Under the pieces are notes generated by a model. That model saw only the letters and a program-made list of their open reading frames with translations, was not told where the DNA came from and did not search any database. A program made the translations under genes and the position numbers. A stretch of DNA of 61,575 nucleotides. Source: a virus. Positions 6,424 through 61,552 of the stretch are shown here, piece after piece (the stretch's first letter is position 1; the number at the start of each line of letters is the position of its first letter). The stretch lies in IMG/VR virus record IMGVR_UViG_3300000358_000010. The stretch is one strand, 5' to 3'.

Positions 6424-9400
6424 TCATATTTCATACAGTTTAGTAGGCATGTATCCGTTATATTCGGATAACGGGAAAATAATGGAAGCATAACCGGATA
6501 TTACACTGGATTTATAATCGCTTACAGCTGTATCAGGAACATATATGGCGACTACATTACCTAATCCGGCATACTCCAAGGTCGTAGGTGGAGTCGTAGA
6601 TTTAAAAATGACCGTCACAGAATTGCATCCGTTAAACATACGCGATCCTATAATATCAAGATTCCCCTCAAACACAACGGTCCTTATCTTTTTGCAGTTA
6701 GCGTAAGACTGAGAACCGGACTTTATTATGTTTACGGGAACACATGAAGCCGCTATCGGGGTATTCTGAAACATTTCATACGAAGTGCTGTTAACATAAC
6801 CTTTCAGTTCACCGAAATCACACTCTTCCAACGACACACAGTTTGAGAAAGAAAGTAAATTAAAGATTGTTGTCATTGAATCTTCCCCATATTCGAAAGA
6901 GTTGCACTTGAACCTTTTCAGTTTCGAACAATCGGAAAACCCTTTATTCATCGTATAGTGCCTTTCGGGAGGTATGATAAAGTCTTTCATCGTAAACTCC
7001 TCAAGCTCGGAACAATTATAAAAAGGCATATAATCACTCCCTCCTCCGGAAGATAAGAATGTGCAGGAATCCGGAAGATTCACTTTCTTTATCTTAGTTC
7101 CCATAAATGCACGTTGGTAGATCTGTTTAAGATTAGGGGGAAAGACAGCTGTTTCCAAATTGGTATTCTCAAAAGCCCCATATCCGATCTCCGTACAATT
7201 ACTCAGACTCTCAAACCCGACCAAGGAAGTGATATTCTTATAATTTTCATTTTTATCACCTGACAGAAAGTATCTTGGTATCGATGTAATCAAGTCGGCT
7301 TCATCCCGGGTTATTCCACCGTCACCGTTGACATCCCATAGCTCAAAGACTCTTTGAGCGACTATCTTATCGGTAAAACGAATAAAATACTTACCGATCA
7401 CATTCAGCTCTAACCTTTTAAAAGTTCCCCTCAAAGCCTGAATCGAATCCTCGTACGCATTCGCATACACATTTAAAGTACCGTCCAGCACCGGGTATTC
7501 ATCCTCACCGGCCACACCTTCGCTGTCAAGACCTACATACGAGCCATCCGCCAAAGCGGCCAGCTTATCCAGCATGTCGGAAGTGTTATACGTTTCATCA
7601 AAACCGACAGCACGGACACGCTTCAACGAATGTCCGGCGCCTTGTCCCTGCTGTGCGTCCATGATCTGTGTCAGGAGCTTGATAGGCTGCATAAGCGGGC
7701 AGTCTGAAATGAAAAAGTCAGTGATTACGGCTGCGCATTCATCTATCAAGACACCACTGTTCTTCATTAACGGATAGTTCTTAAGAACGAGGTAACGGGA
7801 CAAGGCGTTAAACTCTACCAGCTCCAATCCGCCGCCTGCCGGAAGACGAAGCTGGGTGATGGAAGTCCCGTCGATGTACACCTCCTTCAGGTGGCTGCAG
7901 GCGGTAAGGTTCAGAGTGCCCGCCAGCGTGGATATGCGTGAGAGCACAAGCTTCTGCAAGCTGACACAGTTGGAAAGTGTAAGCGACGAAATGGAAATCA
8001 CAATGCCGGCAGTCTTATGCCCAAGCCGGATCTCGCGTAGCATCTTACCCTGTACGATCATGGAACCGGTGACGTTCTTGTCGTGCCAGTCCCCGATATC
8101 CTGCAGGTAGCTTGCCGCCTGAATGGCGTTCTGCTGGTCACCCGTACCTCCCAATTCGATTTCCATATGACAGACCTCACCGGCTTTCGTCCGGGAGCCA
8201 CGGATGATACTCGTACCGTTGGCAATGGCAGGGTACATATCCATGGCCGGGGTGATGTCATAACCGATCGAGTTCCCGGCGGCACGTACTACGATGGTAT
8301 CCGTTCCATTGGCACTGAACAGGCCGAAACTATACTTCGACATCATGTACAGTATCCTCTTTGTTATCCACCGCTGTTCGGCGAGATAGTGATCTCCCAG
8401 TGATTGCGTGATAGGATCGGTATCGTTCGTGTACCGCCCGTCATTGTAAGCTATCTTACCGTTTTCGTAGCAATACTTCGCATCTGCGTTATAGGCGTTC
8501 TGAGGGAAGTATTCCTGCGCTACATCAAAGTAATACTTCTGGTAGAAAGCGTACAGTTTCTGTAAGTCGTTACCGGACTTCAACCCGCCTAATGTCTGCA
8601 TGGCTGTCATGGAACTTCGCATAGAAGCAATTTTCTCGTCCGGGAAAGCCAGTTCCATCAGGTTAAAGAAGTTATTTGTCTCACCGTTCCAGATAGCCGC
8701 CCCTGTTTCGTCCTTGTCATGTACCTCGACGCTGTATGACTTATCAGGCAATCCGCGGTTGGTGGTGTCGAAACGGGTGTCGGCATCATCCACACGCCAA
8801 CGCCATCGGCTGGTATCCGTTCCGAAGCTGTAGGGATAGGTATTTTTGGCACGTTCATCGGTACCGGCATTGAACTCGACGTTGTTCATGAAGAACAGAC
8901 AATCATTGATTTCCCAGTATTGCGGAGCGTCATTTCTGAACTTAGCTATACGGGAATTGATAAACAGTTCATTCAACTGGTCTGCCGTAAATGCGGACAG
9001 GTTTCCGGTATCCATGTAACCGGCCAGTTGCGTTTTCAAGTTTATGGTACCGTTCCCGATATCGGAAGCTATGAACTGACCGACGGAAGACTCGTAATAG
9101 TAGACATTATATTGGTTCACATCCCCGGCTTTCGCTATCCAGAACTCGTAGGGTTCGTTCTTGTAGGCGGAGGCCTGTCCGTTCAGTTCGGTCAACGTAC
9201 CGATGAACGGCTTCAACCGTGGAGAGCACTGGTAGACGCAATTGTATGCCGGGATGAACTTGGATATATTCTCCACTTCGCCTTCACCCAAATCGAAACA
9301 GTTCTGCCCGTTGTACTGATACGCCTCTTCGTCTTCATTGTAGGCTATCAATCCCCGTGCCGGATTCCAGGGGACACGGAACAGGGTGAGCAGCGGTGAG

Positions 9401-12021
9401 TTGTCAGAACCTTCAATGCTCAACAGGTTAGGATAAGTATCCGTATCATACCCGAACGTATCGGCATCCCCCTTATCAGGACCGAATGTGTACAGTCCGC
9501 GGAAAACGTATAGCGTTTCACCTTCCTCGTTGATCTGTTTTTCAAAACATACAAAAGGAGCTTCCCAAACTGAGACACGCACTTTCCCGTCGGCTTGCAT
9601 GGCTTCGTTCAGGATGCCAACCTCACGGATAAGGTCGGTATAGGAATTGACCGCACCGATCTTGTGGGATTGCATGGATGAAGCGTAGTTTTTCTTCGCT
9701 GTGAATTTACGCCCGGCAGGAAGATGGGGTGTCATCGCCCACTTCGCCCCCGCTGCGGAAGTTGTACCGTCCGCATAAGTGATGACAGACAGCTTCTTGT
9801 CGAGCTGGTAACGGGTATTCCAGATCCAGTATTTCATGGATGACGTACCTTGCCCCTTGGCCGTAACGTTATCGATAGATACGTTCCATTCAGGGTGCTC
9901 GTACCAGAACACCTCCAGCGTGCCTAACCGCTGAGTCTGGTCGGACATGGATGGGATGGTGTTGTCATACACCATCACATTCATCTGGTCTACGGTGTTG
10001 GCAAAGTCGATTTCCGAACCGTTGGAGTCAAGGATGTCATTGTAGGCTTTGGCAATCGCCTTGTCGGCACGCTCCACCAGCCAGTTGATGTAGTTTGTAA
10101 GTACACCGGCAGAGGTCAGACCGCTGTCATAGATGCGGATACCGTATACGTCAACGTCAGCATAGTCCGAGCCGATGGTTATCTTCCCGTCCTGCGCGAA
10201 GTAATCGTTGTTCTCATACGTGAACTCCCGGTTCTTAACGCCATTTACGTACAAGACGCACAGGTTGAAATCCTGATTCCCGTAAGCGTCCGGAATGATT
10301 GTCAATGTGAGCTTGGTACGCTTCTCCTCAAAAGTATGCAAACTCTGTACTTCATCATTGCGCTGCACTTGCGAGTGCATGATGATTTCGTCCGCATAGA
10401 TATTCAGGCCAATGAAATTGTCGCCGTTCGGAACGGACATGGTGATAAGCGGCTCCGTGTAATCAGTGACATTTGAAATCAAATAGTCAACCTCTATTGT
10501 CTTGCCTTTACGGGCCGCCTCCTTTTCAAATGGTTTGTAATCCACCGTCAGCAAACCGCCCGCCATGATACGAAGAACCTTGTTCCCGGCGCTGTCCGCT
10601 GTCCAGGCGTCATTGCCCCAGTTCATGCCTTCCCATGTACAGGGGATAGCCGTACCGGTTATCTCGTTGATGACAGACTGCCGGTTGGACTGCCCGTTGC
10701 TTCGGGTCTTCGGATTCATATAGAAAACCGCGCCGGCAACGGCGGAATAACCCAACGAGTTGTCCACCGGGATGACTACCGTACTGCCCAGTTGGCTGTA
10801 ACCGTCCATCACGGACACCTCGATGTTAAACTCCGAATTGTCCAAAGTGTCGATTTCCATCGGAATGGAAAAAGTATGTTTGGCCTGCGTGGTGATATTG
10901 TCCTCTTCAGAGGAATAGACCTGTTTCCCGTCCTTGTTCACGATAAATTCGGCGGAGGTATTTACTTCGTCACCGTTGTAGATCGAGTAATCAAACAGGG
11001 CATTCTCAGTCCAGTTTATAGCCTTTGACGTAACGTTGTTGATAGCGATCATCTTGACCGCTTCACCGGTAACGGCACACATCACATTAAAGGATACGAC
11101 TTTGGTGGCCACGCTGCCATCAACGGTACTGACGTATGCGGTAACCTTGAAAACACCCGTCTTTCCCGGATGGGGGATGGAATAGTTATAAGCGGTTTCG
11201 GTATAGATCTGCGTACCGATATTCTCATCGTATTCCCGGTTATATCCACTGCCAACCACTGTAACGTGCAATACTTTGTTCACATTACCACCTATGTAGA
11301 GCGGAAGCGTGATTGCCCCGGTATAGGCGGTCCACCACCGGAAGTTGCTCGCGTTGATGGTCAACGAGGTCAGGGTCACGGTCCATACGAACGCAGGGGT
11401 GGTGACTTCGGTCACTTCCCCGGTCACTTTTACCATGACGTTATTAGCACCCGATGTGAGGAACTCGGTCACGTCAACGGAAGTAATGCCGGTGGAGTTG
11501 ATATACATTTGCTTCTGAACAACATAGTCCCCATCACCGTTCTTTACCGAGACCTCACATAAGCCACGCTCGTTGGTGTTTTCGTAAGGGTCCAGTGCCG
11601 AGTAACGTTCCTGCGAGATGAACTTAAACTTGATGATACAAGGTTCGTCCTTGCTGGCCGAAAGTGTCTTCCCGTCCATTTCATTGACTACACGCACATA
11701 CCGCTGTACCACAGTCTGACCGCCGGTCGTGTTAAGCGGACCGCTGACTATCTCACCGTTCGCTTCCGCATACAGGTCAGTGCCCTCGATGAAGATATTG
11801 TCGATCTTCCGCGCCATTTCATCTTCCATTAGGCTCAAGGAACGCTTGAATGCGGTGATGGACTGGTTGATCTTCGTAATCTTATCCTGCAAGTCCTCCT
11901 CCCCGGAGGTGTCGTTCACCCCGTCCACCAGTTCGTTGATCTTGCTGACCATCTGGTTCAGTTCCGCCGCCTTCAACGAGTCGCCGGACGTGAACGTCTT
12001 TCTTAATTCGCTTACTGCCAT
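6424..12021 (-). CDS. Giant tail fibre / receptor-binding protein (1865 aa) with C-terminal BspA-type leucine-rich repeats
   Basis: N-terminal coiled coil and a beta-rich middle. CotH-like stretch (GQGTSSMKYW...SSMQSHK, tentative). Ca-loop WDVNGDGGITRDEA. C-terminal LRR_5-like repeats (SLSNCTEIGYGAFENTNLETAVFP...). Confidence 0.8.
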   Translation of the reverse strand: MAVSELRKTFTSGDSLKAAELNQMVSKINELVDGVNDTSGEEDLQDKITKINQSITAFKRSLSLMEDEMARKIDNIFIEGTDLYAEANGEIVSGPLNTTGGQTVVQRYVRVVNEMDGKTLSASKDEPCIIKFKFISQERYSALDPYENTNERGLCEVSVKNGDGDYVVQKQMYINSTGITSVDVTEFLTSGANNVMVKVTGEVTEVTTPAFVWTVTLTSLTINASNFRWWTAYTGAITLPLYIGGNVNKVLHVTVVGSGYNREYDENIGTQIYTETAYNYSIPHPGKTGVFKVTAYVSTVDGSVATKVVSFNVMCAVTGEAVKMIAINNVTSKAINWTENALFDYSIYNGDEVNTSAEFIVNKDGKQVYSSEEDNITTQAKHTFSIPMEIDTLDNSEFNIEVSVMDGYSQLGSTVVIPVDNSLGYSAVAGAVFYMNPKTRSNGQSNRQSVINEITGTAIPCTWEGMNWGNDAWTADSAGNKVLRIMAGGLLTVDYKPFEKEAARKGKTIEVDYLISNVTDYTEPLITMSVPNGDNFIGLNIYADEIIMHSQVQRNDEVQSLHTFEEKRTKLTLTIIPDAYGNQDFNLCVLYVNGVKNREFTYENNDYFAQDGKITIGSDYADVDVYGIRIYDSGLTSAGVLTNYINWLVERADKAIAKAYNDILDSNGSEIDFANTVDQMNVMVYDNTIPSMSDQTQRLGTLEVFWYEHPEWNVSIDNVTAKGQGTSSMKYWIWNTRYQLDKKLSVITYADGTTSAAGAKWAMTPHLPAGRKFTAKKNYASSMQSHKIGAVNSYTDLIREVGILNEAMQADGKVRVSVWEAPFVCFEKQINEEGETLYVFRGLYTFGPDKGDADTFGYDTDTYPNLLSIEGSDNSPLLTLFRVPWNPARGLIAYNEDEEAYQYNGQNCFDLGEGEVENISKFIPAYNCVYQCSPRLKPFIGTLTELNGQASAYKNEPYEFWIAKAGDVNQYNVYYYESSVGQFIASDIGNGTINLKTQLAGYMDTGNLSAFTADQLNELFINSRIAKFRNDAPQYWEINDCLFFMNNVEFNAGTDERAKNTYPYSFGTDTSRWRWRVDDADTRFDTTNRGLPDKSYSVEVHDKDETGAAIWNGETNNFFNLMELAFPDEKIASMRSSMTAMQTLGGLKSGNDLQKLYAFYQKYYFDVAQEYFPQNAYNADAKYCYENGKIAYNDGRYTNDTDPITQSLGDHYLAEQRWITKRILYMMSKYSFGLFSANGTDTIVVRAAGNSIGYDITPAMDMYPAIANGTSIIRGSRTKAGEVCHMEIELGGTGDQQNAIQAASYLQDIGDWHDKNVTGSMIVQGKMLREIRLGHKTAGIVISISSLTLSNCVSLQKLVLSRISTLAGTLNLTACSHLKEVYIDGTSITQLRLPAGGGLELVEFNALSRYLVLKNYPLMKNSGVLIDECAAVITDFFISDCPLMQPIKLLTQIMDAQQGQGAGHSLKRVRAVGFDETYNTSDMLDKLAALADGSYVGLDSEGVAGEDEYPVLDGTLNVYANAYEDSIQALRGTFKRLELNVIGKYFIRFTDKIVAQRVFELWDVNGDGGITRDEADLITSIPRYFLSGDKNENYKNITSLVGFESLSNCTEIGYGAFENTNLETAVFPPNLKQIYQRAFMGTKIKKVNLPDSCTFLSSGGGSDYMPFYNCSELEEFTMKDFIIPPERHYTMNKGFSDCSKLKRFKCNSFEYGEDSMTTIFNLLSFSNCVSLEECDFGELKGYVNSTSYEMFQNTPIAASCVPVNIIKSGSQSYANCKKIRTVVFEGNLDIIGSRMFNGCNSVTVIFKSTTPPTTLEYAGLGNVVAIYVPDTAVSDYKSSVISGYASIIFPLSEYNGYMPTKLYEI

Positions 12022-12932: not shown

Positions 12933-15900
12933 TTACAATGATATCTTATTATAGGACCATGACTTGCCACCCCATACACAGATAGCAAGGTGATTGTCCT
13001 CTTTTAACAGGTCCGATGTTGCACCACCATTCAATGTACTTCCGTTTGCATGAACAATAGGACCACGTCCTGTACCCGGCCATCTTTTGATTAAGTATAC
13101 TTTGCCGACCGGCGGATCTTTTGGTAGGTATACATTTTGATCACTTCCGGTGAAGCTGCATGATACAAAACAGTCTTCCAAGGTCAGATATCCTCCTGAT
13201 GCTATTGAACGTAATTTAACCGCAAATCCGGAGATACACCCGGTTAAAGCAAGCGCGATGTTATTTTCTTTCTCGGAGGCTCCGGTAGCGGAAAAACGAG
13301 CGGCAATACATTTATCCGCTGAACTGTTATTATTAATCCACAACGGGACATTCAACCCTAAAGCGGCAGGTGCGGTATTAATACCTAAACCGGCAGTAAT
13401 GCCATCCCCAGAAAACTGAATATTCTGGGTTGATATAGTCATTGGACCGGAAGCTAAAGAAGTACCGGATATTTTAAAGCCACCAATCATGGACTCTCCG
13501 GTAACTGTAAGGTAATTAGCTGTAATTCTATCAGCCGCCAAAGCATTTGCGACGATAGTTTGGGCATCAATCAAGTCCGTCCGGATATACCCGCCATTGA
13601 TGAGCGTGGTTCCCAGCATGGCCTTCTCAACCGCACTCTTATACGCCAAACTTCCTAATGTATTTGACAGGGCATCCACCTTTGATTGCGCTGTGGAAGC
13701 GGCACTGTTTATCGCGTCGGTCTTTGCCGTGTCAACATAGCCTGTCGTTGCTTTTCCGTTGATGGTACCTTGCAGGTCAGCGTTGAAGGAGTTGAAGGTG
13801 ACAGCCCCGGTTATATCCAGGTATTTGGACGCTATCTTTACAGAAGTTCCTTCAAACACCACCTTATCGGCTCTGATTGAGGCGTTGGAAATCAGATTAC
13901 CGGCCTGATCGGCCGTGATGAAAGTACTGATGTCAGCCTGCTTGACTATCTTTCCGTCAACGACCGCATTGGCGAACAGCGTGGCAAATGTTCCGTTCCC
14001 CGTTACCAGACCGGACGTGTTCTTCAACGTGCCGTCAGAGTTGAACCTTCCTGCCACCACAGAGATGCTGTCCCTGTTTTGCTTGATAGCCGTAGCATTT
14101 GTCTCACCGGTTGCCTTTGCGGCATCGGCTGTGACACCCGCAGCGTCAGCGGCTTTCTGGGCGACACTTATCAAACGCTTTGCTTCCGTATCGTTCGCTC
14201 CGACCGTCAACAGGATACTATCGCCAAGGTTTTTTATGTAAGCGGTTGTAGCATTACTGGCAGGGGTCCAGTGAGAAATTGAAAACGCTGCTCCGACTGC
14301 CTTGGCGGTCACGCATCTCAAGGTATCATTTGAATAGTTTACACCGCTACCCGAGTAGGTGGCGTTCACCCATAAATCGCCAATGTCATAAGCTTTCTCG
14401 TTCGTTGGTTGGGCTACGAATACCCTACGTTTTCCGTCTGCGGTGTCCTGGGCTTTGGCGGCATCTTCCAACGCCTTGACGGTCTGCTGGTCCGTTATAC
14501 TGTTCCAGCTATACGCCCCGTTCGCATTCTTTTCGAAACGGTAGGCCAGTCCGGAAGCCCGGTTGTAAAACATATCCTGCTCGTGTAGAGCCTTTAAAGC
14601 GTCCGTAGTCCATTCTACCGCCGGGATGTTGCTCAAAGTCGGTGCGTACTCAAAGAACCAGATTGTAAACTCTCTGTCCACCTGATCCTTAACGATGTCA
14701 AAGTCAGCCTTAAGGTCGGAAAACATATCATCATAGCTCTTGCCTGTAGCCTCAGAGATAAACTGACCGAGAAACTTGTTAAGGGTTGGCGACAGGATGG
14801 TTACCTCTTTATTACGTAGCGTGTACCCGTTGATACCCTTGTACTGCTTGATCGAAGGCGCGTCATCGCCCACAGTGGAGAGGATGATCGCGTTCTGACG
14901 TGTCGTGTCGGTTCGATTACCGATCTGCACGATTTCGTCACCGGCAGACGGTTCCATGCTGCCGATGTCACAGTCGGCTTTACTCAAGTCTATGTAATCA
15001 TCACCGACAGCCGTTACCAGTCTCCAGTAATAGATATTGGAAACATTATGTGACGTACCTTCCTGAACATTGAATGTTCTGCGACATGCCTGATCGCCTG
15101 CCACAAACTCTTGCCGGATGGACCTTTCCCCGTCATTTTGCTTAAAGTAACAGCGGTACACGTCAGCAAGTTCCTCTACTTTCGTACATTCCATGCTTGC
15201 CGGGGTAAGAATAATTTCACCGCCTACATGACGAAGCTGTTTGATGATAAGTTCTATGAAATAAGCCACTTTTCGAACAAGTAAATCATCCACTTCAAGG
15301 TAACTCCGTCCAGTCTTCTGATCATATTTCAATACGTATCCGTTACCCAGATCTCCACTCACGAAATCGGGAGACACGATACTGAAGACATTCTTCAGTT
15401 CGTCAAAGACGGCCGTTACCGCACCACTGTCACTGACACTGATGCCATGACCTTTTTTGCCGATAAGGAGACCTTTGAGGAAGGTGATTATTTCTTTCGC
15501 AGTGTCGACCTGATCCTTGCGAAGAAACATGGCCAGTAACCGCAAGGCAGAGAATGTATTACTATCCGTTGCGGGTGTAGAATCATTCCTTCTGATAAGA
15601 TACACACCGTTGCCAACCCCACCGGTATAAGTCTGCCCAGCAAGCGTTACGCTGTCTATCTTTTCTTCCAGTTCTCCGATGCGGGAATAAGCGGCTGTCT
15701 CACCTACGGTATATTCAGGTGAATCAAAAGGATAGTCAAGGTTGAACTCGAAACCTATGATACGTGATTGTCTTCCGTTCTCAAAGTAGGCCTTGTTGAT
15801 AAGGTTCACCTTCTGTCCCATGCCGTAAAGGTTATGAATACCATCTTCACGATATGCGTCATCGGACATCATCTTGCAGTTGTAGGTATTCGGGTCTATC

Positions 15901-17156
15901 TTGGACTTGGTAACGCACTTCTCGGCCTTGGTCTTCAATTCCTGCTCTGCGACAGACACTAATCCAAGCTCTGTTATCTTTGTGCTGTCCCATCCCGATA
16001 ATACATACTTATCCCCGTTGACAGGGGCGAGTACTCCATCGGGCAAGGGTCTACCGTAGTCCTCGTTACGTACAATCTCCCAAAGCTGTTCATCCTTGCC
16101 ATCGGGGTCAAAGGTGACAGCGAACATCATACCGTTTAATTTTCCCGATTGGAAGGTAATTTTCAGTTCCTCACCAGGAAGAACATAATCCTTTGAGAAA
16201 GTGATACCTGTGTCCTTGAAACGGTAGGCGTTCCATTTCTTTTCGGTAGTCGTTCCATCAGCATTCTCGATGGTTTCGGTGTACTCTTTAGTGGTAATGT
16301 CCGACATCGTTCCAACTCTCCGTGGATAGACCTCATCGAAGATAACAACCTGTTCGATGGCTTCCTCGGTAGTCATATTAGGGTATGCGTCAATGTAGGG
16401 AATACCCTCGGGCAGCATTAATCTTTTCTGAACCACACCATTCACCACCACCGTTTCGTCAACGGGGCGGTAGTTAGTGGGAATATTCCTTGTCGAACCG
16501 AAAGCATAGATACGGGTAGCGTATGTTGACTGGGATTCGGAACGTGTCATTTCATCCACGTTCTTTGCTATCTCGAAGTCAACAGCCGTGCCAAACTCAC
16601 ATCTGCCGAAATGGATGATATTCTCTGTCACCCAACACTCACAATCCCATTTCTTCGCCATTTCAAAGCAAGCGTCAAGAATATTGATGTTGTTGTAAGA
16701 CATCAACTGAGCTTTGTTTTCAACCGTGCTGTCAATGGAAAAAACAAAATCCTGTCCTTTGTATGTGTAACCAAGAGCTTTCAAGTTTCTAAGGACTATA
16801 CCGGCTTGAACGTCAAGTGTGGCGGTCAGATTCCAGGACGCTTCCTGTCCGGCTGACTCGGGGGTATATTTGAAGATTTTGTTTTTCCATTTCCAGTAAT
16901 AGGCATCAAGTCTTAATTCGTAATCATAGCCTGCGGTACCGGTGTTAAATGTAGGCTTCTGCAAGTCGCACACCTCGAACAGCCCGAAATCGCATTCCAC
17001 ATAGTCGCCCAGCTTGAAGTGTACGGGATCATCCAAAGAGAATTTCAACAGAATGCAATCTTCTTTCTGAAGCGTGAACTTACGCTTGCAACCTTCGTTG
17101 ATTGGGGTTGTAAGGAGAATACTGCCAGATATGTCTTTGATGTCTACTCTTTCCAT
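12933..17156 (-). CDS. Tail-associated lysin-like / tip protein (Tal, 1407 aa)
   Basis: Lies after Dit. The N-terminal 350 aa or so resemble the siphovirus Tal/gp27-like domain. The long C-terminal region is beta-rich and fibre-like. Confidence 0.75.
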   Translation of the reverse strand: MERVDIKDISGSILLTTPINEGCKRKFTLQKEDCILLKFSLDDPVHFKLGDYVECDFGLFEVCDLQKPTFNTGTAGYDYELRLDAYYWKWKNKIFKYTPESAGQEASWNLTATLDVQAGIVLRNLKALGYTYKGQDFVFSIDSTVENKAQLMSYNNINILDACFEMAKKWDCECWVTENIIHFGRCEFGTAVDFEIAKNVDEMTRSESQSTYATRIYAFGSTRNIPTNYRPVDETVVVNGVVQKRLMLPEGIPYIDAYPNMTTEEAIEQVVIFDEVYPRRVGTMSDITTKEYTETIENADGTTTEKKWNAYRFKDTGITFSKDYVLPGEELKITFQSGKLNGMMFAVTFDPDGKDEQLWEIVRNEDYGRPLPDGVLAPVNGDKYVLSGWDSTKITELGLVSVAEQELKTKAEKCVTKSKIDPNTYNCKMMSDDAYREDGIHNLYGMGQKVNLINKAYFENGRQSRIIGFEFNLDYPFDSPEYTVGETAAYSRIGELEEKIDSVTLAGQTYTGGVGNGVYLIRRNDSTPATDSNTFSALRLLAMFLRKDQVDTAKEIITFLKGLLIGKKGHGISVSDSGAVTAVFDELKNVFSIVSPDFVSGDLGNGYVLKYDQKTGRSYLEVDDLLVRKVAYFIELIIKQLRHVGGEIILTPASMECTKVEELADVYRCYFKQNDGERSIRQEFVAGDQACRRTFNVQEGTSHNVSNIYYWRLVTAVGDDYIDLSKADCDIGSMEPSAGDEIVQIGNRTDTTRQNAIILSTVGDDAPSIKQYKGINGYTLRNKEVTILSPTLNKFLGQFISEATGKSYDDMFSDLKADFDIVKDQVDREFTIWFFEYAPTLSNIPAVEWTTDALKALHEQDMFYNRASGLAYRFEKNANGAYSWNSITDQQTVKALEDAAKAQDTADGKRRVFVAQPTNEKAYDIGDLWVNATYSGSGVNYSNDTLRCVTAKAVGAAFSISHWTPASNATTAYIKNLGDSILLTVGANDTEAKRLISVAQKAADAAGVTADAAKATGETNATAIKQNRDSISVVAGRFNSDGTLKNTSGLVTGNGTFATLFANAVVDGKIVKQADISTFITADQAGNLISNASIRADKVVFEGTSVKIASKYLDITGAVTFNSFNADLQGTINGKATTGYVDTAKTDAINSAASTAQSKVDALSNTLGSLAYKSAVEKAMLGTTLINGGYIRTDLIDAQTIVANALAADRITANYLTVTGESMIGGFKISGTSLASGPMTISTQNIQFSGDGITAGLGINTAPAALGLNVPLWINNNSSADKCIAARFSATGASEKENNIALALTGCISGFAVKLRSIASGGYLTLEDCFVSCSFTGSDQNVYLPKDPPVGKVYLIKRWPGTGRGPIVHANGSTLNGGATSDLLKEDNHLAICVWGGKSWSYNKISL

Positions 17157-41605: not shown

Positions 41606-41613
41606 TATATTTG
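41606..41613 (+). promoter_or_regulatory. -7 box TATATTTG for the HTH/TM pair
   Basis: Lies 24 nt upstream of the ATG at 41637. Confidence 0.6.
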
Positions 41614-41893: not shown

Positions 41894-42571
41894 GTGGATG
41901 TTAATACAATTATCAATATTGTTGCTATTATCTTAGCAGTAGGCAACTTTATATGCCTTTATAGCATATCTCGAAAGAAAGCTTACAATGAAGAGAAAGG
42001 AAAGAATCTTGCCACTAAAGAAGATATAGGTAATATTACCAATGAGATAAAATCTGTTGAAAGTAAATTCACAATACTTACAAATCTGCATTCTGGAATA
42101 TTATCTGAAGAAAGAAATACAATTATCGAGTTCAATGAAAAATATTCTTTATGGGTTGGAAGTTATATGATTAATTGGAGGCTCAATAGCAATAATAATA
42201 TTGATGTTGATGAATTCTCAAGAATATTAGAAAAAAATCAAGAATTATGTTATATATCCCTTTCTAAATTTGAACTTTTCATAGAAGACGAGGAATTAAA
42301 TCGCTTAGCTCAAGAATTAATTATTAAGGCGGCACAATTAGAAGGATTAAGGAGTATTATTGAAGAGATACGTCCTTTAAATATCTTGTTAAATTCTGCT
42401 GAAGCGCAAGAAAGAAAAATCCAAGAAGAGCTAATAAAAAGAAAAGTGGAATTCCTTAAATCATACAATAATCAATATACATCATTATATAGAGAAATAC
42501 CTGCAATCTTAAATGTCTTTCAACAGAAATGCCGAGACAGAATTTATAAATTATTAAAGCCGGAGCATTAA
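41894..42571 (+). CDS. Membrane-anchored coiled-coil protein (225 aa), function unknown
   Basis: GTG start 2 nt after the HTH stop. N-terminal TM segment IINIVAIILAVGNFICLYSI. The rest is helical. Confidence 0.65.
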   Translation: MDVNTIINIVAIILAVGNFICLYSISRKKAYNEEKGKNLATKEDIGNITNEIKSVESKFTILTNLHSGILSEERNTIIEFNEKYSLWVGSYMINWRLNSNNNIDVDEFSRILEKNQELCYISLSKFELFIEDEELNRLAQELIIKAAQLEGLRSIIEEIRPLNILLNSAEAQERKIQEELIKRKVEFLKSYNNQYTSLYREIPAILNVFQQKCRDRIYKLLKPEH

Positions 42572-43291: not shown

Positions 43292-43311
43292 AATTATTGA
43301 GTTAATTTTTA

Positions 43312-43485
43312 TTTTCTGAAAAACATATCTCCACTGATCGCTCGTGCGGTATCATCTCCTGTAAGACGTATGTACCGGAAGAAGTTATGCTCACTCCGGT
43401 GCCCAGTGAGTTTCATAATCTCCAGTGTTTTCATCCGGCCGGTGAGATACATGTTAGTGGCGGCTGATCTCCTGCCAGAAGTGAT
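43312..43485 (-). pseudogene. Remnant of a tyrosine recombinase C-terminus (catalytic box II region)
   Basis: Minus-strand translation SGRRSAATNMYLTGRMKTLEIMKLTGHRSEHNFFRYIRLTGDD... fits the Bacteroidetes integrase motif RRSxATN..Y......iM..TGH......Y. Bounded by a stop upstream. No N-terminal part is present. Confidence 0.7.
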
Positions 43486-44502: not shown

Positions 44503-44664
44503 TTACTTCTTCTCGCCCTCATACACCAACAGAATCCTATCACAAAGCATCAATCTGTGTAATTTCTTGCGGGTTTGTTCAATACTGTCGGTCTCGATAT
44601 TTACGTTGTGAATATCACGGACTGCGCCAGTGACATACTCAACTTTAGCTATTAGGTGTTTCAT
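44503..44664 (-). CDS. Small ORF (53 aa), not in the track
   Basis: MKHLIAKVEYVTGAVRDIHNVNIETDSIEQTRKKLHRLMLCDRILLVYEGEKK*. Heads the leftward operon, divergent from the HNH gene. Confidence 0.4.
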   Translation of the reverse strand: MKHLIAKVEYVTGAVRDIHNVNIETDSIEQTRKKLHRLMLCDRILLVYEGEKK

Positions 44665-44712
44665 TGGAATAATTATTTTTCTATTTTAATTTATATACTC
44701 GAAGAAAACTTA

Positions 44713-44720
44713 TATATTTG
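44713..44720 (+). promoter_or_regulatory. -7 box TATATTTG for the HNH gene
   Basis: Lies 26 nt upstream of the ATG at 44746. Confidence 0.6.
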
Positions 44721-44745
44721 TTCTCAAACTAAAAGAGTTAATACT

Positions 44746-45522
44746 ATGTACGCTATCATAACCGAGAATGACTTATCACAATGGAAAGACAAGACTGGGG
44801 AATTATATCATCATCCCAAACGGCATTTGAAATCTCTTGTACCTGGAACTAAGGTTATTTATTATAAAGGTAATCTTACAGATAAACAATATGAGAAACA
44901 TCGCTTGACATCGAAAGCTCATTATTTTGGAATTGGAGAGATTGGCAAACAATATCCTGATCCTAATTCTACTAAGAATGATTATTTCTCTGAGATAATA
45001 AATTTCCAAGCATTTGATAGTCCAATTTTTATAAAGGATAAAGATGGTCATTATTTAGAGACCATTCCAACTTCACGCCAAACAAACTATTGGCGAGATG
45101 GGACAAGACCTATAACCAAGGAAGTCTATGAAAAAATACTTTCTCAATCTTGTATTTCAATTGCAATAGATCAAAATGAAGAATTAACATCCAATGTAAC
45201 AGAGGGAAAGCAAAAAAAGACTTACTCAACTACATATGAAAGAAAACCTAAACTACGTCAACAGGCACTAAACATCCATGGTTATACATGTATGGTATGT
45301 GGATTTAATTTTCTCGAATCTTATGGAGAAGTCGGTCGTGGTTTTATTCATATCCACCATATAAAACCTCTTTCTGAAACTGGAGAACAAATTGTTGATC
45401 CCCAAACTGATCTAATGCCTGTATGTCCTAATTGCCATTGTATGATTCACCGAGGAAAAGACCGCGTTTTAGCAATTGAAGAACTAAAACAGATGTTGAA
45501 AAAGAATAAACTCACTCCATAA
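44746..45522 (+). CDS. HNH endonuclease with an N-terminal beta-rich reader-like domain (258 aa); candidate type IV or type II restriction nuclease
   Basis: Trimmed to the ATG at 44746. C-terminal HNH: CMVCGFNF...IHIHHIKPLSETG...PVCPNCHCMIH. The PUA/EVE-like assignment of the N-terminal 150 aa or so (WKDKTGELYHHP...GTKVIYYKG...YFGIGEIG) is tentative. Confidence 0.75.
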   Translation: MYAIITENDLSQWKDKTGELYHHPKRHLKSLVPGTKVIYYKGNLTDKQYEKHRLTSKAHYFGIGEIGKQYPDPNSTKNDYFSEIINFQAFDSPIFIKDKDGHYLETIPTSRQTNYWRDGTRPITKEVYEKILSQSCISIAIDQNEELTSNVTEGKQKKTYSTTYERKPKLRQQALNIHGYTCMVCGFNFLESYGEVGRGFIHIHHIKPLSETGEQIVDPQTDLMPVCPNCHCMIHRGKDRVLAIEELKQMLKKNKLTP

Positions 45523-45575
45523 TACATCTTGAATCTACTGATATGTCTGATTTATTATGAACATAATATTATAAT

Positions 45576-45806
45576 ATGAAAAATATACAGTTTTTTTTAA
45601 AGAGACTAAATCGCTACATACAATACCATTATCCGTCTGATCGGGATTATATTTTAAAGATACTGAAACCTTGGATTGCTATTGGATTAATAATCACAAT
45701 TTGCTATTTAGCTTTTTGCTTTGGAATAGATTGGGTTCTTAGTAGAATAGCTTTTTGGGGAATCATTGGCACTCTTGTATGGTGGGGAAATTTGGGAAGC
45801 AAATAA
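45576..45806 (+). CDS. Small two-TM membrane protein (76 aa)
   Basis: ORF track. Hydrophobic segments WIAIGLIITICYLAFCFGI and IAFWGIIGTLVWW. Confidence 0.5.
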   Translation: MKNIQFFLKRLNRYIQYHYPSDRDYILKILKPWIAIGLIITICYLAFCFGIDWVLSRIAFWGIIGTLVWWGNLGSK

Positions 45807-45835
45807 ATTCACCTCTTTATTGGTTTGGAGATTTA

Positions 45836-46516
45836 TTAGAAAGTTTGTTGTATGCGGGATAACACAAATTTATTCGCATCAGCATAAAAATTCTTCTTGA
45901 TTTCAAATCCATATGCTTTGCGTCCTACTTGAACTGCTGCGAGTAAGGTGGAACCACTACCAGCGCATGGATCAATTACGACATCGCCTTTATCGGTAAA
46001 TATCTCTATCAACCTTCGAAGAAGCGGAACAGGCTTTTGTGTCGGGTGAATTTTGGGAGTTTCATTATCTACCACCCAATCGAAGCAGTTGAAAATCATT
46101 CGCCCATCATTATTGAATTTGGGAAGTTTTTCACGGTACAAGAGCAAACCATACTCACAGTTACCAACTACTTTCATATTTGCCTTGAGAACCTGAGCGG
46201 AGAAATTCTTTCTGAATACAAGGTTGATATAGTTGTTCAGCCCGTATCGTTTACCGAGTTCGATGTATCTGAACTGGTCTTCAAATTCACAGAAGATAAT
46301 CATACATGGAGCTTTACCTTTTTCTTTCGGCTCCTTTACAAGCATCTGACTGCAAAAGTACATGAACTCGGCAGGTCGAAAATCTTTATCAGTATCAAAG
46401 AACTCTTTACCGGCTTTATCACTTTCTCCGTTTTTGTTATTACCATCCACATACCATAAAGGGTTAGAAGCATAAGCATTATTCCCTAAATTATAGGGAA
46501 CATCGGCAATTATCAA
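45836..46516 (-). CDS. DNA methyltransferase, beta class (N6-adenine or N4-cytosine)
   Basis: Motif IV-like ADVPYN sits at the N-terminus and motif I VIDPCAGSGSTLLAA near the C-terminus. Only a TTG start is available, and the frame stays open for 28 more codons upstream without a start codon. Confidence 0.8.
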   Translation of the reverse strand: MIIADVPYNLGNNAYASNPLWYVDGNNKNGESDKAGKEFFDTDKDFRPAEFMYFCSQMLVKEPKEKGKAPCMIIFCEFEDQFRYIELGKRYGLNNYINLVFRKNFSAQVLKANMKVVGNCEYGLLLYREKLPKFNNDGRMIFNCFDWVVDNETPKIHPTQKPVPLLRRLIEIFTDKGDVVIDPCAGSGSTLLAAVQVGRKAYGFEIKKNFYADANKFVLSRIQQTF

Positions 46517-46562
46517 TTGAGCTTTGGGGATACCGTAAACCTTATAGTTTGGGAAATGATCG

Positions 46563-46775
46563 TTAAATTGTGGATAATTGCGTTTTGTCGACGTCCTGTT
46601 TCAATTTACGGATGGCGGAAATCGCAGTGTTGAAATTACGTTTCGCGTCGTAACATAATTCATAGCCTTGTTTTCCCATTTCACTTCTCAAATCGTAGAG
46701 AAGCGTTTCTACGATATCGGTCAACACATAGGTTAGGTTGAGCGTCGTATTAAGATTTGTTGTTCCTACTAACAT
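46563..46775 (-). CDS. Hypothetical (70 aa)
   Basis: ORF track. Confidence 0.45.
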   Translation of the reverse strand: MLVGTTNLNTTLNLTYVLTDIVETLLYDLRSEMGKQGYELCYDAKRNFNTAISAIRKLKQDVDKTQLSTI

Positions 46776-46779: not shown

Positions 46780-46965
46780 TTATTTATTTCTTAAGCTTAT
46801 AAAGCCTCGTTTAACCAACTCTATCAGATCCGACATATTTTCTTCACTTATTTCTGCCTGAGTCTCACCATTTACAGACATATAGTGAGGAATGCCAAAT
46901 CGATCACGGATTCTCTTACGGATAACAGGAGTAGACTTATTCTCCCAGTAGATAGTTACTTTCAT
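46780..46965 (-). CDS. Hypothetical (61 aa)
   Basis: ORF track. Overlaps the upstream stop. Confidence 0.5.
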   Translation of the reverse strand: MKVTIYWENKSTPVIRKRIRDRFGIPHYMSVNGETQAEISEENMSDLIELVKRGFISLRNK

Positions 46966-47555
46966 TTTCGTAAGCTTTCTCCCTTAAACTTTACCCTCGT
47001 AGTAATGGCTACCAACCTGTCCATGGTACGTTCTCCATATTTTTGAGAAATTTCGTCAAGTGATAGATTGGTAGTCAGCATAAGAAGCTTCCCCCTCTTT
47101 TCTGCTTCATCAACAATTTCACAGAAAGCAAGTCTTTTTTCTCCAAATTTCACGCTTAAATTTTCTGTACCGATATCATCAATGTAAATGATATGTTTTG
47201 CCTTCACAGCGTCTATATCTGCGTTCATTTGTTGTGCATCATAACATGCTACTATCTTTCTGCAATAGTGGTTAAGCAACAGAGGAATGATTTTCCAACA
47301 GATAAGTGACTTTCCACGTCCACAATTACCATGACATAAAAGTCCACGCCCATTATTTCCGGAAAGCCATGCAGCTATTTCTTCGTACTCCGGCAACCAT
47401 TCAGCATTTCTCGTGAAATAATTCAGTCCCCTCAAAAGTACATCCTTTGAATCTGGTATAGCTATGTCCACAAGATTGGGCATAGGATTAAACCCAGTTC
47501 CTTTGAGACTATCAATTGTTTTTTTGAAGTCTATTTGTTCCATCTTTCCTCCCAT
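46962..47555 (-). CDS. DnaC/IstB-like helicase loader ATPase (197 aa)
   Basis: Walker A HGNCGRGKS and Walker B IIYIDDIGTE. Confidence 0.8.
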   Translation of the reverse strand: MGGKMEQIDFKKTIDSLKGTGFNPMPNLVDIAIPDSKDVLLRGLNYFTRNAEWLPEYEEIAAWLSGNNGRGLLCHGNCGRGKSLICWKIIPLLLNHYCRKIVACYDAQQMNADIDAVKAKHIIYIDDIGTENLSVKFGEKRLAFCEIVDEAEKRGKLLMLTTNLSLDEISQKYGERTMDRLVAITTRVKFKGESLRK

Positions 47556-48340
47556 TTCCTTTCTCGTGGTGAATCATATTTATTCGGAGTATTATCATTG
47601 AGAACTACTCCAATATCAATGACCGATTTAGAAGACATTTTTTCGCGGTTTGCCCATGTTGCCAGCCTTTTAGAAAGCTCCCAAGTTTTCTCAAGTTCAT
47701 AACGCATCTTAGTTTCTGATTTATTCAGCTCTGACCAATAATCGAAGAAAGCCCTTATCATGTCTTTCGGGTATTTACCAACATAGGGAACTAAGGACTG
47801 ATAGAAAGAATCTTTTCGAGTGAGAGTAGCGGCTTTAGCCGCGTCCCTGTCTTTGGGTTTCTTTTTCTCTACGATAGTAGAGTTTTCTTTATTTTCTTCT
47901 AATTCTTTCTCTTTATTATCTTTATTTATTTTGTTTCCCTGCTGTTTCCAAGGTGTTTCCTCACTGTTTCCCTGCTGTTTCTTTTGCGTTTCCAGCTCTT
48001 GTAATACGAAGTTGTATTTATCGTAATTACAGATAGTTACAACGGTCTGTCCTGTTTCCTTTGGTGTTTCTTTTATAATCATATTGTCCTGTATCAGTAA
48101 GTCGAGGAAAGAATTTACTTTCTTGGTTGACCACTGCCAACGACCAGCTAAAAACCGCAATGAAACAAGTATCTGCCCGCGCTTAACTTCTATGAACCTA
48201 TTACCAATAAGTTGCTTCGTGTCTTCAAATCGTGCGCTACGAACTAAATCAAGCCATGCTTCAAACCTCGAAAATACGCGCTCTTCGCACCAAAATGGGT
48301 GCTCAAATAGCCGTCTGCTAATAGGTATGTAATATTTCAT
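47531..48340 (-). CDS. Replication initiator / replisome organiser (269 aa)
   Basis: N-terminal winged-helix-like region, a low-complexity linker carrying the iterons, and a C-terminal domain. Lies upstream of the loader. Confidence 0.7.
   Translation of the reverse strand: MKYYIPISRRLFEHPFWCEERVFSRFEAWLDLVRSARFEDTKQLIGNRFIEVKRGQILVSLRFLAGRWQWSTKKVNSFLDLLIQDNMIIKETPKETGQTVVTICNYDKYNFVLQELETQKKQQGNSEETPWKQQGNKINKDNKEKELEENKENSTIVEKKKPKDRDAAKAATLTRKDSFYQSLVPYVGKYPKDMIRAFFDYWSELNKSETKMRYELEKTWELSKRLATWANREKMSSKSVIDIGVVLNDNTPNKYDSPRERKWEERWNK
47932..47992. repeat. Iteron array: six (T/C)GTTTC(C) repeats at exact 11-bp spacing (candidate ori)
   Basis: Copies start at 47932, 47943, 47954, 47965, 47976 and 47987. 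Includes a 17-nt exact duplicate TGTTTCCCTGCTGTTTC. An AT-rich tract lies at 47881..47930. Confidence 0.75.
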
Positions 48341-48343: not shown

Positions 48344-49516
48344 TCAAAACCTCACATTAGTTAATTGTCTTCCCTTAGAGAATACAGCCCATTTCCCATT
48401 GCCGCTATCAAATAACCGCAAATCCGACACCTCTCCGAAACGTTTGATGTTACCACATAAATCAACAATCCACCCACACTCTTTCTGAGGATGTGGACGA
48501 ATAGCCCGACCAACTATCTGATACCACATAGCAAGTGACATCGTAGGACGGGCCATAACAACCGTATCAAGCTCGGGATAATCAAAACCAGTAGTCAGAA
48601 CTCCGACATTGGCAACGACCGGGATTTCACCAGATTTGAACGCAGCAAGGATTCTTTCACGAGTAGATTTGGGAGTATCACCCGAAACAATAGCGCATCC
48701 GGGAATGGACCACGTAAGCTGTTCGGCTTCTTTCAAGAACCGGGTAAATACCAGTATTCCCTTTCGTTTACCTCCAGCTTTTGGATTCATCAGCCTTTGG
48801 ACGATATGGACGAGATAACTGTAAAAGTCGATTCGTTCATATTCCTTTTGGATTGATTTATCCGTATAGTCGGCACCAGTAGTGTTCACCCGTAAGTTGA
48901 GTTCATTCCATCCCGAAGGATTCATCGGATAGTAATTCAACTTTGCCAAATATCCCATATCTAAGAGAGTTGATACCTGTACATGGTAAATGACCTCTGA
49001 AAAGACATGAGGCTTTGTCCGGGTGATGAATTTCAGCATGGATCCGAAGTCACGTGAGGAAGACAATCTATAAGGAGTTGCCGTCAAGCCAAGAACCTTG
49101 CACTTCACTGCATCAAAAAAATCCTTGTACATTCCCTCTTTGGGGTTAACAAGGTGGCATTCGTCCACGATGATGTTCTTGAAGTGGATGAACAGTTCGG
49201 GATGATTCTTTACCGATCCGATTGTTGCGAATGTTATCCGGCTTATTTCCTTTGAGTTGAAAGAAGCCGAATAAATGCTACAGTCAAGAATACCATACGA
49301 GCAGAGCTTTTTAAAATTTTGTTCGACAATCTCTTTTGAAGGCTGGAACACTAAAGTATGTCCGTCAAGTCTTGCGGCTATATCCGCTATGATAAGGCTC
49401 TTTCCGCTTCCGGTCGGTAACACCATAATGGCATTTGTTTTCTTCGCCTTATTGTTAAAGAAAGAAACGGCAGCATCAGAGGCTTTCTGTTGATAATCTC
49501 GTAATACATAACTCAT
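48344..49516 (-). CDS. SF2 DEAD/DEAH-box DNA helicase (390 aa)
   Basis: VLPTGSGKS, IIVDECH, LGLTATP and QIVGRAIR motifs. Confidence 0.85.
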   Translation of the reverse strand: MSYVLRDYQQKASDAAVSFFNNKAKKTNAIMVLPTGSGKSLIIADIAARLDGHTLVFQPSKEIVEQNFKKLCSYGILDCSIYSASFNSKEISRITFATIGSVKNHPELFIHFKNIIVDECHLVNPKEGMYKDFFDAVKCKVLGLTATPYRLSSSRDFGSMLKFITRTKPHVFSEVIYHVQVSTLLDMGYLAKLNYYPMNPSGWNELNLRVNTTGADYTDKSIQKEYERIDFYSYLVHIVQRLMNPKAGGKRKGILVFTRFLKEAEQLTWSIPGCAIVSGDTPKSTRERILAAFKSGEIPVVANVGVLTTGFDYPELDTVVMARPTMSLAMWYQIVGRAIRPHPQKECGWIVDLCGNIKRFGEVSDLRLFDSGNGKWAVFSKGRQLTNVRF

Positions 49517-55085: not shown

Positions 55086-55112
55086 AAAACTTATTGTTTA
55101 ATTAATGATTTG

Positions 55113-60096: not shown

Positions 60097-60118
60097 AGCC
60101 GGGGATCACTCCCCGGCT
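60097..60118 (+). terminator. Intrinsic terminator embedded in the integrase 3' coding end
   Basis: Stem AGCCGGGGA/TCCCCGGCT with a 4-nt loop, followed by TTTTT. Confidence 0.75.
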
Positions 60119-61380
60119 TTTTCTTCGTCCTTCTTTTTTGGATGGAACACAAAATCAATTACCTTCCGATTTGCCTTATCAATCCTGCTCCAGTCCTTTT
60201 TAACATAAGTATCTGTGACATTATACCCAGACTTATGATTCAATGACATTGCTACATCATCCATCGAAATACCGCAGTCGTTCCTTGCTATTGTAGCCCA
60301 AGAGTGGCGCGCAGCATAAAGAGTTAAATCGGGAATACCTAAAGCAATCCCTATCTTTTTCAGATTAAGATTCACCTTATGCACAAATTGCTTATGGCTC
60401 GCATATCTTATAAAGAAATTAAACGCTCTATCCCCTACTGAATCCTTATATCTTTCCAAATAAGGCTCAAGCTCCGGTTCTACTTTAATGGAAATAAAAG
60501 CCCTATCATCCCGCCTGGTTCTTGTCTTCCTCCGCTCGTACTCAAATCTATCATCAACAGGAGGATTCAAATAAAACATATCAACGGTATTCATTCCAAC
60601 CATAAAGAACGACATCAGAAACACATCTCTGGCAATAATGACACCCAACATATTTTCCGGTATTCGATACTCTTTTATAGCTCTTATCTGTTCATCCGTT
60701 AAAGAACGCTTTCTTGTAATCGGTTGCTTTGGAATTTTGTATTTAGCAAAGGGATTATTGGAAATGCGGATTATTCCGACATCTTCATCGTTATATTCAA
60801 GCTTTGCCCGATTAAATAACGCTTGTATCTTCGACATATAAAGCCGAACCCCAGAATCAGAAATATTTCCAATACCACATTTTGACCGTTGACTCTTTAA
60901 ATCTTCTTCGAATTTAATTAAGAGAGAAGATGTGATATCCGAGAAACATAAATTTCGATTTCCCACGAATGCCTCAAACTTGCTAATAGCAATTCGATAA
61001 TTTTCCCCTATCCGCCTACCTTCTTTCAAAACCTTATCCGCATAAGCATAACCAAAGTCGAAGAAGTTAATTCCTTCAGGCTTATTAGAAAGTTTATCTT
61101 TCATCAGTTCACATAATCCTTTAGCAGAATACAAATCAATAGAGTGACCCAATTTTGAAAGTTCGGCTCTAATTTTAAGAACATCGAGCATTACTTGGTC
61201 ATAAATCGGATTATTCCTTTCTTTTAGCTCAAAAGTCTTCTTGTTTATCAACTCACTTCCCACATAGTGAGTGGTCGCAATATATGAAGATTGACGTTCG
61301 TGCGTAATCCGTATCTTCACATTCCAGGTATTATCTTCTCGCCTTTGATGCTTGAGGATGATTATTTTAACTGTAGCCAT
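60106..61380 (-). CDS. int: Tyrosine integrase (425 aa)
   Basis: Trimmed to the ATG at 61380 (MATVKIIILKHQRRED). C-terminal motifs are AARHSWAT and LNHKSGYNVTDTYV. Confidence 0.9.
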   Translation of the reverse strand: MATVKIIILKHQRREDNTWNVKIRITHERQSSYIATTHYVGSELINKKTFELKERNNPIYDQVMLDVLKIRAELSKLGHSIDLYSAKGLCELMKDKLSNKPEGINFFDFGYAYADKVLKEGRRIGENYRIAISKFEAFVGNRNLCFSDITSSLLIKFEEDLKSQRSKCGIGNISDSGVRLYMSKIQALFNRAKLEYNDEDVGIIRISNNPFAKYKIPKQPITRKRSLTDEQIRAIKEYRIPENMLGVIIARDVFLMSFFMVGMNTVDMFYLNPPVDDRFEYERRKTRTRRDDRAFISIKVEPELEPYLERYKDSVGDRAFNFFIRYASHKQFVHKVNLNLKKIGIALGIPDLTLYAARHSWATIARNDCGISMDDVAMSLNHKSGYNVTDTYVKKDWSRIDKANRKVIDFVFHPKKKDEEKAGE

Positions 61381-61435
61381 CGTTGTAAAACATTTAATCG
61401 TGCATTCCTGTTTTTCGTAAAACGTTCGTAAAACA

Positions 61436-61481
61436 ATTGCGCAAAGATAGCAAATTAATTTAGATATGCTATCTTTGCGCA
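61436..61481. promoter_or_regulatory. Perfect 16-bp inverted repeat TTGCGCAAAGATAGCA / TGCTATCTTTGCGCAA with a -7 box (TATCTTTG) on each strand; integrase promoter/operator
   Basis: Arms at 61436..61451 and 61466..61481 with a 14-nt AT spacer. The minus-strand box lies about 60 nt upstream of the int ATG. Confidence 0.65.
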
Positions 61482-61552
61482 ATACAAAGAGAAACAGTTA
61501 ATTACATCTAAAAAGCTATAGCTTAAGTAGTTCTCTATACAGTTTTTGCACC

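Follow-up and report, generated by a model that had tools for sequence, protein, structure and literature searches.

Analysis of the IMG/VR virus record IMGVR_UViG_3300000358_000010, a stretch of 61,575 nucleotides (nt) referred to here as the window, showed that the open reading frame (ORF) at 44746..45522 probably encodes a solitary type IV (modification-dependent) restriction endonuclease, carried as a moron by a temperate phage of the Bacteroides type. The protein joins a predicted modified-base reader of the PUA superfamily to a C-terminal HNH nuclease. In the same reading, held to be probable as a whole, the DNA methyltransferase gene that converges on the nuclease gene is a common anti-restriction or orphan methylase that adjoins the insertion site by chance. 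The features of the nuclease gene are as follows:

44746..45522, plus strand: nuclease gene, encoding a protein of 258 amino acids (aa)
44746..45150, plus strand: PUA-superfamily (EVE/YTH/ASCH-like) beta-barrel, aa 1-135, predicted modified-base sensor
45163..45228, plus strand: inter-domain linker, aa 140-161, predicted to be disordered
45238..45522, plus strand: HNH (beta-beta-alpha-Me) domain with a Cys4 zinc site, and the stop codon

The nuclease frame is not a chance ORF, since 109 homologs were found, about 39 of them full length. All homolog alignments begin with MYAIITEND, and for this reason the ATG at 44746 was taken as the start, not the GTG at 44656. PHROG 8048 ("HNH endonuclease") spans the full protein (2.4e-57). 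Full-length homologs were obtained from Bacteroides, Sphingobacterium, Pedobacter, Psychrobacter, Pseudomonas, Serratia, Acinetobacter, Vibrio, a Pirellulaceae metagenome-assembled genome (MAG), Maridesulfovibrio and Akkermansia, as well as from phages. All the motifs quoted in a preliminary description of this DNA, made from the sequence, were located in the protein: WKDKTGELYHHP, GTKVIYYKG, YFGIGEIG, FSEIINFQAF, C182xxC185, HIHHIKP and C227PNCH.

The canonical C-terminal HNH named in that description was confirmed by Pfam HNH, which matched residues 182-236 above its cut-off (3.3e-7). A search of the PDB with the family profile gave EcoKMcrA (6ghc) as the best solved relative of the HNH half (E 3.1e-9; profile positions 144-254 against chain residues 170-279), with ScoMcrA and TagI as weaker sequence matches, and the PADLOC family mREase_IV also matched this half (1.5e-7). 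These matches support an HNH half of the McrA/type IV kind. Eleven residues (C182, C185, H202, H204, H205, D222, C227, N229, C230, H231 and H235) were invariant in 41 homologs, and because the four zinc cysteines and the catalytic His residues are among them, the enzyme looks catalytically competent. The linker had a predicted local distance difference test score (pLDDT) below 50 at residues 140-157 and 159-161 of the full-length model. It coincides with the gap-rich, non-conserved stretch of the homolog alignment (A1), where both length and sequence vary.

The N-terminal domain was modelled alone (residues 1-140, 35 homologs in the alignment) with AlphaFold2, which returned a beta-barrel with flanking helices at a pLDDT of 91.6 and a predicted template modelling score of 0.85. 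The best match of this model in the PDB by Foldseek was PH1033 (1wmm/2hd9; E 1.5e-4, template modelling (TM) score 0.55), which we take to be one of the founding EVE structures. It was followed by the N-terminal domain of McrB from Staphylothermus marinus (6n0s, E 1.7e-4), by the ASCH proteins AF2351 and ASC1, and by dozens of SRA domains at E 0.05-0.2. The same picture was obtained with the whole protein, and in BFVD, which holds predicted viral structures, the best named matches were ASCH- and EVE-domain proteins. The reader-like, PUA-superfamily fold that had been proposed for the N-terminal residues was thus upheld. On the model, the domain is predicted to be a PUA-superfamily barrel nearest to the EVE/YTH/ASCH corner, in a sequence clade of its own. 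Pfam EVE (PF01878) did not match the N-terminal domain of the window protein even at E <= 10, and matched weakly (E 0.011) in 2 of 27 homologous domains; Pfam, NCBIfam and PADLOC gave no match to this domain and recognise the HNH half only. Invariant positions of the domain were I5, N8, D9, W13, G18, H22, P24, Y40, K41, G42, R53, Y60, F61, E105, R117 and R121, and S11, D15, Y21, Y39, N114, Y115 and W116 were nearly invariant. Many of these conserved residues are aromatic or polar, as expected if the domain holds the predicted base-binding pocket.

The strongest argument for a sensor of DNA modification came from the proteins to which the N-terminal domain is fused. A profile of this domain alone, searched against 1.84 billion representatives at E <= 1e-3, matched 726 representative clusters (50% identity). 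Among the 87 listed proteins of at least 240 aa, the commonest partner was NOV_C, a PD-(D/E)XK nuclease of the DUF3883 type (41 of 87), with the N-terminal domain in front (for example P0252/P0260). HNH was attached in 28, plus HNH_2 or HNH_5 in a few. One protein each carried Mrr_cat, a McrB-like AAA_5 NTPase (P0311, N-terminal domain in front) and ResIII/Helicase_C (P0284, N-terminal domain behind the helicase). In three, a canonical EVE domain was added in tandem, placed between the N-terminal domain and HNH (P0264). EVE has been described as a specificity domain of type IV enzymes, in EVE-HNH, EVE-PD(D/E)XK and EVE-McrB combinations (Bell, Wolf, Koonin; PMC7641849), and because the mix of fusions found here matches that pattern, the domain is read as a DNA-modification sensor. 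It appears, as far as the sequences tell, to be a mobile specificity module common to several type IV effectors. The HNH half was also seen in other company: three gut-metagenome proteins of 242-243 aa (P0040-P0042) have an HNH half 70-75% identical to that of the window protein and an unrelated, unannotated N-terminal half, and P0058 joins an HNH of the window subtype to DUF3427. It seems that reader domains are exchanged while the nuclease stays nearly constant.

To examine the genomic neighbourhood of the nuclease homologs, Pfam was run on the two ORFs to either side in 32 loci, 125 proteins in all; the loci came from Bacteroidota, Gammaproteobacteria, Planctomycetota and others. No family recurred in more than 4 of the 125 flanking ORFs, and N6_N4_Mtase was not among the recurrent families; a type I HsdM gene lay nearby in two loci. 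For fusions of PUA domains with nucleases, a DNA methylase within 3 kb was reported in less than 6%, a figure taken as support for modification dependence (Lutz et al., PMC6765204), and the neighbourhoods seen here agree with that figure and point to a solitary gene. Because the 32 loci held neither a recurrent partner nor a cognate methyltransferase, the reading of the gene as half of a restriction-modification (R-M) pair fails and the type IV reading gains support. The latter, one of the two options raised in the preliminary description, is further backed by the reader-like fold and the McrA/type IV kind of HNH. The evidence favours a nuclease that depends on modification, or at least one that needs no protective methylase.

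Several points weigh against this reading. The reader assignment rests on a predicted fold (TM about 0.5, root mean square deviation 6 Å) together with domain architecture, and no curated family of readers was matched significantly by the sequence of the N-terminal domain. Searches of PDB sequences with the single sequence and with the profile found nothing in residues 1-140, and alignment of the domain profile with one canonical EVE sequence (P0264) by hhalign gave a probability of 1%, which is not significant. PUA-like domains also bind RNA or free nucleotides. The evidence for a promoter of the nuclease gene is weak. Within phages, the adjacency of nuclease and methylase is not unique to the window, although the methylases differ: 9 of 19 phage loci have an N6_N4 methylase, only distantly related, at 1-2.5 kb downstream of the nuclease. 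Seven of these nine loci are near-identical contigs, the methylases concerned belong to different families (30-40% identical over about 60 aa), and the other 10 loci have no relative of the window methylase.

Among the other explanations, an abortive-infection effector fares best and is still considered improbable. The PUA-like domain would then respond to a small molecule, or to a modified RNA or nucleotide, set free in the course of infection, and not to modified phage DNA, and would unleash non-specific cleavage by HNH. PUA-superfamily domains can bind free modified nucleotides, and the top fold matches include the RNA-related ASCH and YTH-like proteins. A PUA-Cal-HAD system is reported to sense m6-dAMP (PMC12871103), and autoinhibition of the nuclease by its reader and linker is known from VcaM4I (PMC7897488). 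Against this, the partners of the N-terminal domain (McrB-like AAA_5, Mrr_cat, NOV_C and HNH) are those of DNA-targeting type IV enzymes, and the characterised PUA-HNH enzymes act directly on modified DNA (PMC6765204).

Comparison with related phages showed that the nuclease gene lies in a block shared with a different Bacteroides prophage, the locus L004 from an independent MAG:

44655..46030: mosaic block common with L004, about 97-98% identity, holding the promoter region, the nuclease gene, a 76-aa ORF and the 3' end of the methylase gene

When window positions 44655-46570 were aligned pairwise with L004 positions 5910-7830, identity was 65% to the left of 44655, 96.7-97.8% in the block and 79% in 46081-46560, and the sequences were unalignable beyond about 46570; the drop within the methylase gene falls at about 46040-46080. 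These steps in identity indicate that different phages have exchanged the nuclease cassette and that one crossover fell within the methylase gene. A third lineage (L001, L039-L045) has a nuclease of 97% identity beside the same small gene, orf53, but the genes that follow it, a methylase among them, are not those of the window. L065 (2721-4165), a related phage, carries an orf53 homolog at 64% identity with co-directional genes ahead of it and no nuclease gene. The nuclease gene is therefore subject to presence/absence polymorphism at the orf53 position. Its adjacency to the methylase of the window is specific to this phage lineage.

Both in the window and in the 12 non-redundant phage loci with mapped ORFs, the nuclease gene runs opposite to the genes around it. 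Cargo expressed in lysogeny is usually transcribed against the phage operons, as in phage morons. The neighbours in the phage loci include SIR2_2, AbiH and AbiEii-like genes. In L046, L048, L049, L051 and L053, a PAPS-reductase-like ORF of 270 aa lies directly upstream of the nuclease and divergent from it (minus strand, about 4137-4949; 3859-4671 in L051), and N6_N4 methylases, a Dam-class methylase and Mom occur near the nuclease in other phage loci. The gene thus tends to sit in a region of DNA-modification and defence cargo.

The polymorphism among related phages, the plain PHROGs label of "HNH endonuclease" and the location in the replication and early region would also suit a selfish homing HNH, or an HNH that processes phage DNA in packaging or replication and has no part in defence. 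This explanation is judged quite improbable. Across phyla, full-length orthologs occur as single genes on chromosomes, in many settings outside phages, the window gene runs against the phage operons, and its closest HNH relatives are McrA, TagI and ScoMcrA, not homing or terminase-associated proteins. The joining of a reader to the nuclease, and the recurrence of that reader on PD-(D/E)XK and McrB-like effectors, likewise speaks for a type IV enzyme over a homing or processing HNH.

The methylase gene that faces the nuclease is the following:

45836..46600, minus strand: beta-class N6_N4 DNA methyltransferase, with motif IV ADVPYN and motif I DPCAGSGST

Pfam N6_N4_Mtase matched it at 2.5e-23, in agreement with the convergent methyltransferase of DPPY type (ADVPYN) noted earlier. 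The enzyme is probably adenine-specific and forms N6-methyladenine (m6A), and several homologs are named adenine-specific by their source. In the ORF first quoted (45836..46516), the first start is a TTG at 46514-46516, immediately before the catalytic motif IV. The frame is open to 46600, where it meets a stop at 46601-46603, and contains no ATG, GTG or TTG between that stop and 46516. All close homologs start with MK.IELFNDHF; in the window, unrelated sequence stands in place of the first six codons, and the native ATG is lost. The catalytic motifs are intact. The window methylase may be a recent pseudogene, inactive or poorly translated. A frameshift fusion of a 70-aa upstream ORF to the methylase was considered and rejected, as no homolog has such an N-terminal extension. 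At its C-terminus, the gene differs from that of L004 by a 3-nt in-frame deletion (QQTF versus QQTLF).

More than 8000 homologs of the methylase, nearly all of 250-253 aa, were counted at E < 1e-20, a number that is a lower bound. Set against the 109 nuclease homologs, this count means that most of the methylases occur without the nuclease. The methylase is a common backbone gene of these phages, where it most plausibly protects the phage against host restriction. A start-less methylase beside an intact nuclease fits the independence of the two genes. A tblastn search with the window methylase and the 76-aa ORF found both only in the identical cassette of L004. A type II-like R-M pair, in which HNH would cleave DNA that lacks the modification and the convergent methyltransferase would shield the genomes of phage and host, is very improbable, and the functional pair suggested in the preliminary description was abandoned: the nuclease cassette and the methylase do converge 30 nt apart in the window, with the same arrangement in L004, and some N6_N4 methylase lies within 2.5 kb in the nine phage loci given above, but no methylase recurs as a partner across the 32 genomic loci, the methylases of the phage loci are of unlike families, homologs of the window methylase vastly outnumber the nuclease, the recombination boundary and the missing start both fall on the methylase gene, and the N-terminal domain has the predicted fold of a modified-base reader and not that of a sequence-specific DNA-binding domain.

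Upstream and downstream of the nuclease, two further features were considered:

44713..44720, plus strand: TATATTTG, match to the Bacteroides -7 box (TAnnTTTG) and candidate nuclease promoter, 25 nt upstream of the ATG
45576..45806, plus strand: 76-aa ORF, co-directional with the nuclease gene, of uncertain status as a gene

A promoter of its own would be needed by the nuclease gene because it is opposite in strand to its neighbours, and one had been claimed for it. The -7 box bears this out in part, but no -33 TTTG was found at a spacing of 17-21 nt from it. The bipartite Bacteroides promoter consensus occurred 8 times in the window against 2.4 expected, and none of these matches was at the nuclease gene. 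The 91-nt intergenic sequence at 44655-44745 is 96.7% identical to that of L004. Scans for sigma-70 promoters and for terminators were uninformative for a genome of the Bacteroides type, and the space between the convergent genes yielded no terminator hairpin; the candidate hairpin there folds no better than shuffled sequence.

The 76-aa ORF had been described as having two transmembrane segments. The ORF exists and its hydropathy showed one strong segment (residues 33-51, Kyte-Doolittle 2.4), but the second segment is weaker. It had no family match in Pfam, PHROGs, PADLOC or NCBIfam. Outside the near-identical L004 cassette (94.7% identity in aa), it was found in none of the other 34 genomic and 19 viral loci. 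As a general feature, a role as a conserved partner of the nuclease (for example an immunity or holin-like protein) was rejected, since the ORF is absent from every locus but L004.

Among known systems, the EVE-HNH group of TspA15I, VcaM4I and CmeDI shares with the window nuclease the architecture of an N-terminal PUA barrel, a linker and a C-terminal HNH, and a similar size (Lutz et al. 2019, PMC6765204; Pastor et al. 2021, PMC7897488). Its members are likewise solitary genes without a methylase. The group differs in that no sequence relationship to the window protein is detectable, the window HNH is of the McrA subtype and Pfam EVE is not matched. VcaM4I chains were absent from the PDB sequence matches of both halves and from the top 50 Foldseek matches, and VcaM4I was not matched when an EVE-HNH relative was searched against the PDB. 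By residue numbering, S11, D15, H22, P24 and N114-x-W116 of the window protein resemble T11, E15, W22, P24 and Q128-x-Y130 of VcaM4I, a resemblance that was not used as evidence.

EcoKMcrA (6ghc), which is specific for 5-methylcytosine, is also a prophage-borne, solitary, two-domain type IV enzyme with a reader and an HNH. Its gene lies on e14, a cryptic prophage of E. coli K-12. The logic of prophage cargo is the same in both, and by this analogy the window nuclease would restrict competitors with modified DNA. The N-terminal reader domains of the two enzymes are unrelated: the alignment covers the linker and HNH only, residues 1-134 of McrA were not aligned, and McrA was absent from the Foldseek list of the N-terminal domain. 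Czapinska and colleagues reportedly found in 2018 that the McrA N-terminal domain is not a PUA fold. The SRA-HNH enzymes (TagI, 6ghs; ScoA3IV/Sco5333; ScoMcrA, 5zmm) also combine a PUA-superfamily reader with HNH. Their HNH domains are among the weak PDB matches and SRA domains appear in the Foldseek list (E 0.05-0.2), but in fold SRA matches less closely than EVE, YTH or ASCH do, and the Pfam SRA families were not matched. The McrB homologs with YTH/EVE-like N-terminal domains supplied the second-best structural match (S. marinus, 6n0s), and the relative P0311 is itself fused to a McrB-like AAA_5 module; the window protein differs from them as a single-chain HNH enzyme without a GTPase or McrC partner. 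The McrB homolog of T. gammatolerans is an m6A reader.

In the proposed mechanism, a promoter of its own would drive the nuclease gene in the direction opposite to the lytic operons. The PUA-like (EVE-like) barrel would bind DNA and flip a modified base into the conserved aromatic and polar pocket, and base binding would license the flexibly tethered McrA-type HNH domain to nick or cut nearby. In a lysogen, incoming phage or plasmid DNA with the recognised modification would be destroyed, and the host chromosome and the prophage would be spared, since they would be without that modification. The enzyme would thereby protect the lysogen and, with it, the prophage. A role in prophage defence or superinfection exclusion is the best reading of the gene. 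These steps are likely by analogy with VcaM4I, in which the EVE domain flips 5-methylcytosine or 5-hydroxymethylcytosine into a hydrophobic pocket and the reader and linker restrain HNH (PMC7897488).

As to the target, a modified cytosine or another hypermodified base is preferred over m6A, since several phage lineages that carry the nuclease also carry genes for adenine modification (N6_N4 methylases named adenine-specific by their sources, Dam and Mom). The preference is slight, and it is weakened by the m6A-related McrB family among the structural neighbours. It is also conceivable, if rather doubtful, that the pocket of this distinct, uncurated PUA clade reads a modification beyond those of the characterised type IV readers, for example a hypermodified base of gut Bacteroides phages.

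Taken as a whole, the window represents a Bacteroides-type temperate phage or prophage. Its temperate nature, assumed in the preliminary description, agrees with the integrase it carries, and a replication module lies directly to the right of the nuclease and methylase region:

60106..61482: integrase, PHROG 1 match
46962..47555: DnaC-like loader
47531..48340: DnaD-like protein
48344..49516: helicase, followed by NinG

The minus strand holds almost all the long ORFs of the window. The nearest relatives of the region were human-gut metagenome contigs and one Bacteroides sp. MAG, and megablast found no DNA-level match of the region among deposited GenBank phages.

Other features of the window were noted. 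The 47-aa ORF at 43309-43452 (minus strand), which ends in ...MKLTGHRSEHNFFRYIRLTGDD... and has stop codons upstream in all frames, resembles by eye the C-terminal end of a tyrosine recombinase; judged in the same way, it may be an integrase remnant that marks an old insertion beside the cargo region. A second plus-strand ORF among the minus-strand genes (41894-42571, 225 aa) had no Pfam or PHROG match and may be another moron; a full match to the Bacteroides bipartite promoter (TTTG-N19-TAnnTTTG) lies at 41583-41613, about 280 nt upstream of it. A tRNA-like gene with a four-base anticodon (tgcg) and no assigned amino acid was reported by ARAGORN at 55112-55194 (minus strand). GC content across the window was 31-51%; it reached 44-51% in 8001-16000, over very long ORFs of the minus strand (6424..12021 and 12933..17156), and stayed at 31-43% in the rest of the window, and this island looks like it falls in tail or fibre genes.

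The current picture is unchanged in that PUA-HNH modification-dependent enzymes and prophage-borne type IV enzymes are both established. What is added to the catalogue of type IV modules is a sizeable clade of readers without Pfam annotation, with 726 clusters and four kinds of effector. If the specificity of the nuclease were determined, it could become a tool enzyme for the mapping of DNA modification. A gut Bacteroides prophage that carries a type IV enzyme as lysogeny cargo would bear on competition between phages in the gut, and if the domain does read a new modification, temperate gut phages would be using this nuclease for modification-based warfare with one another.

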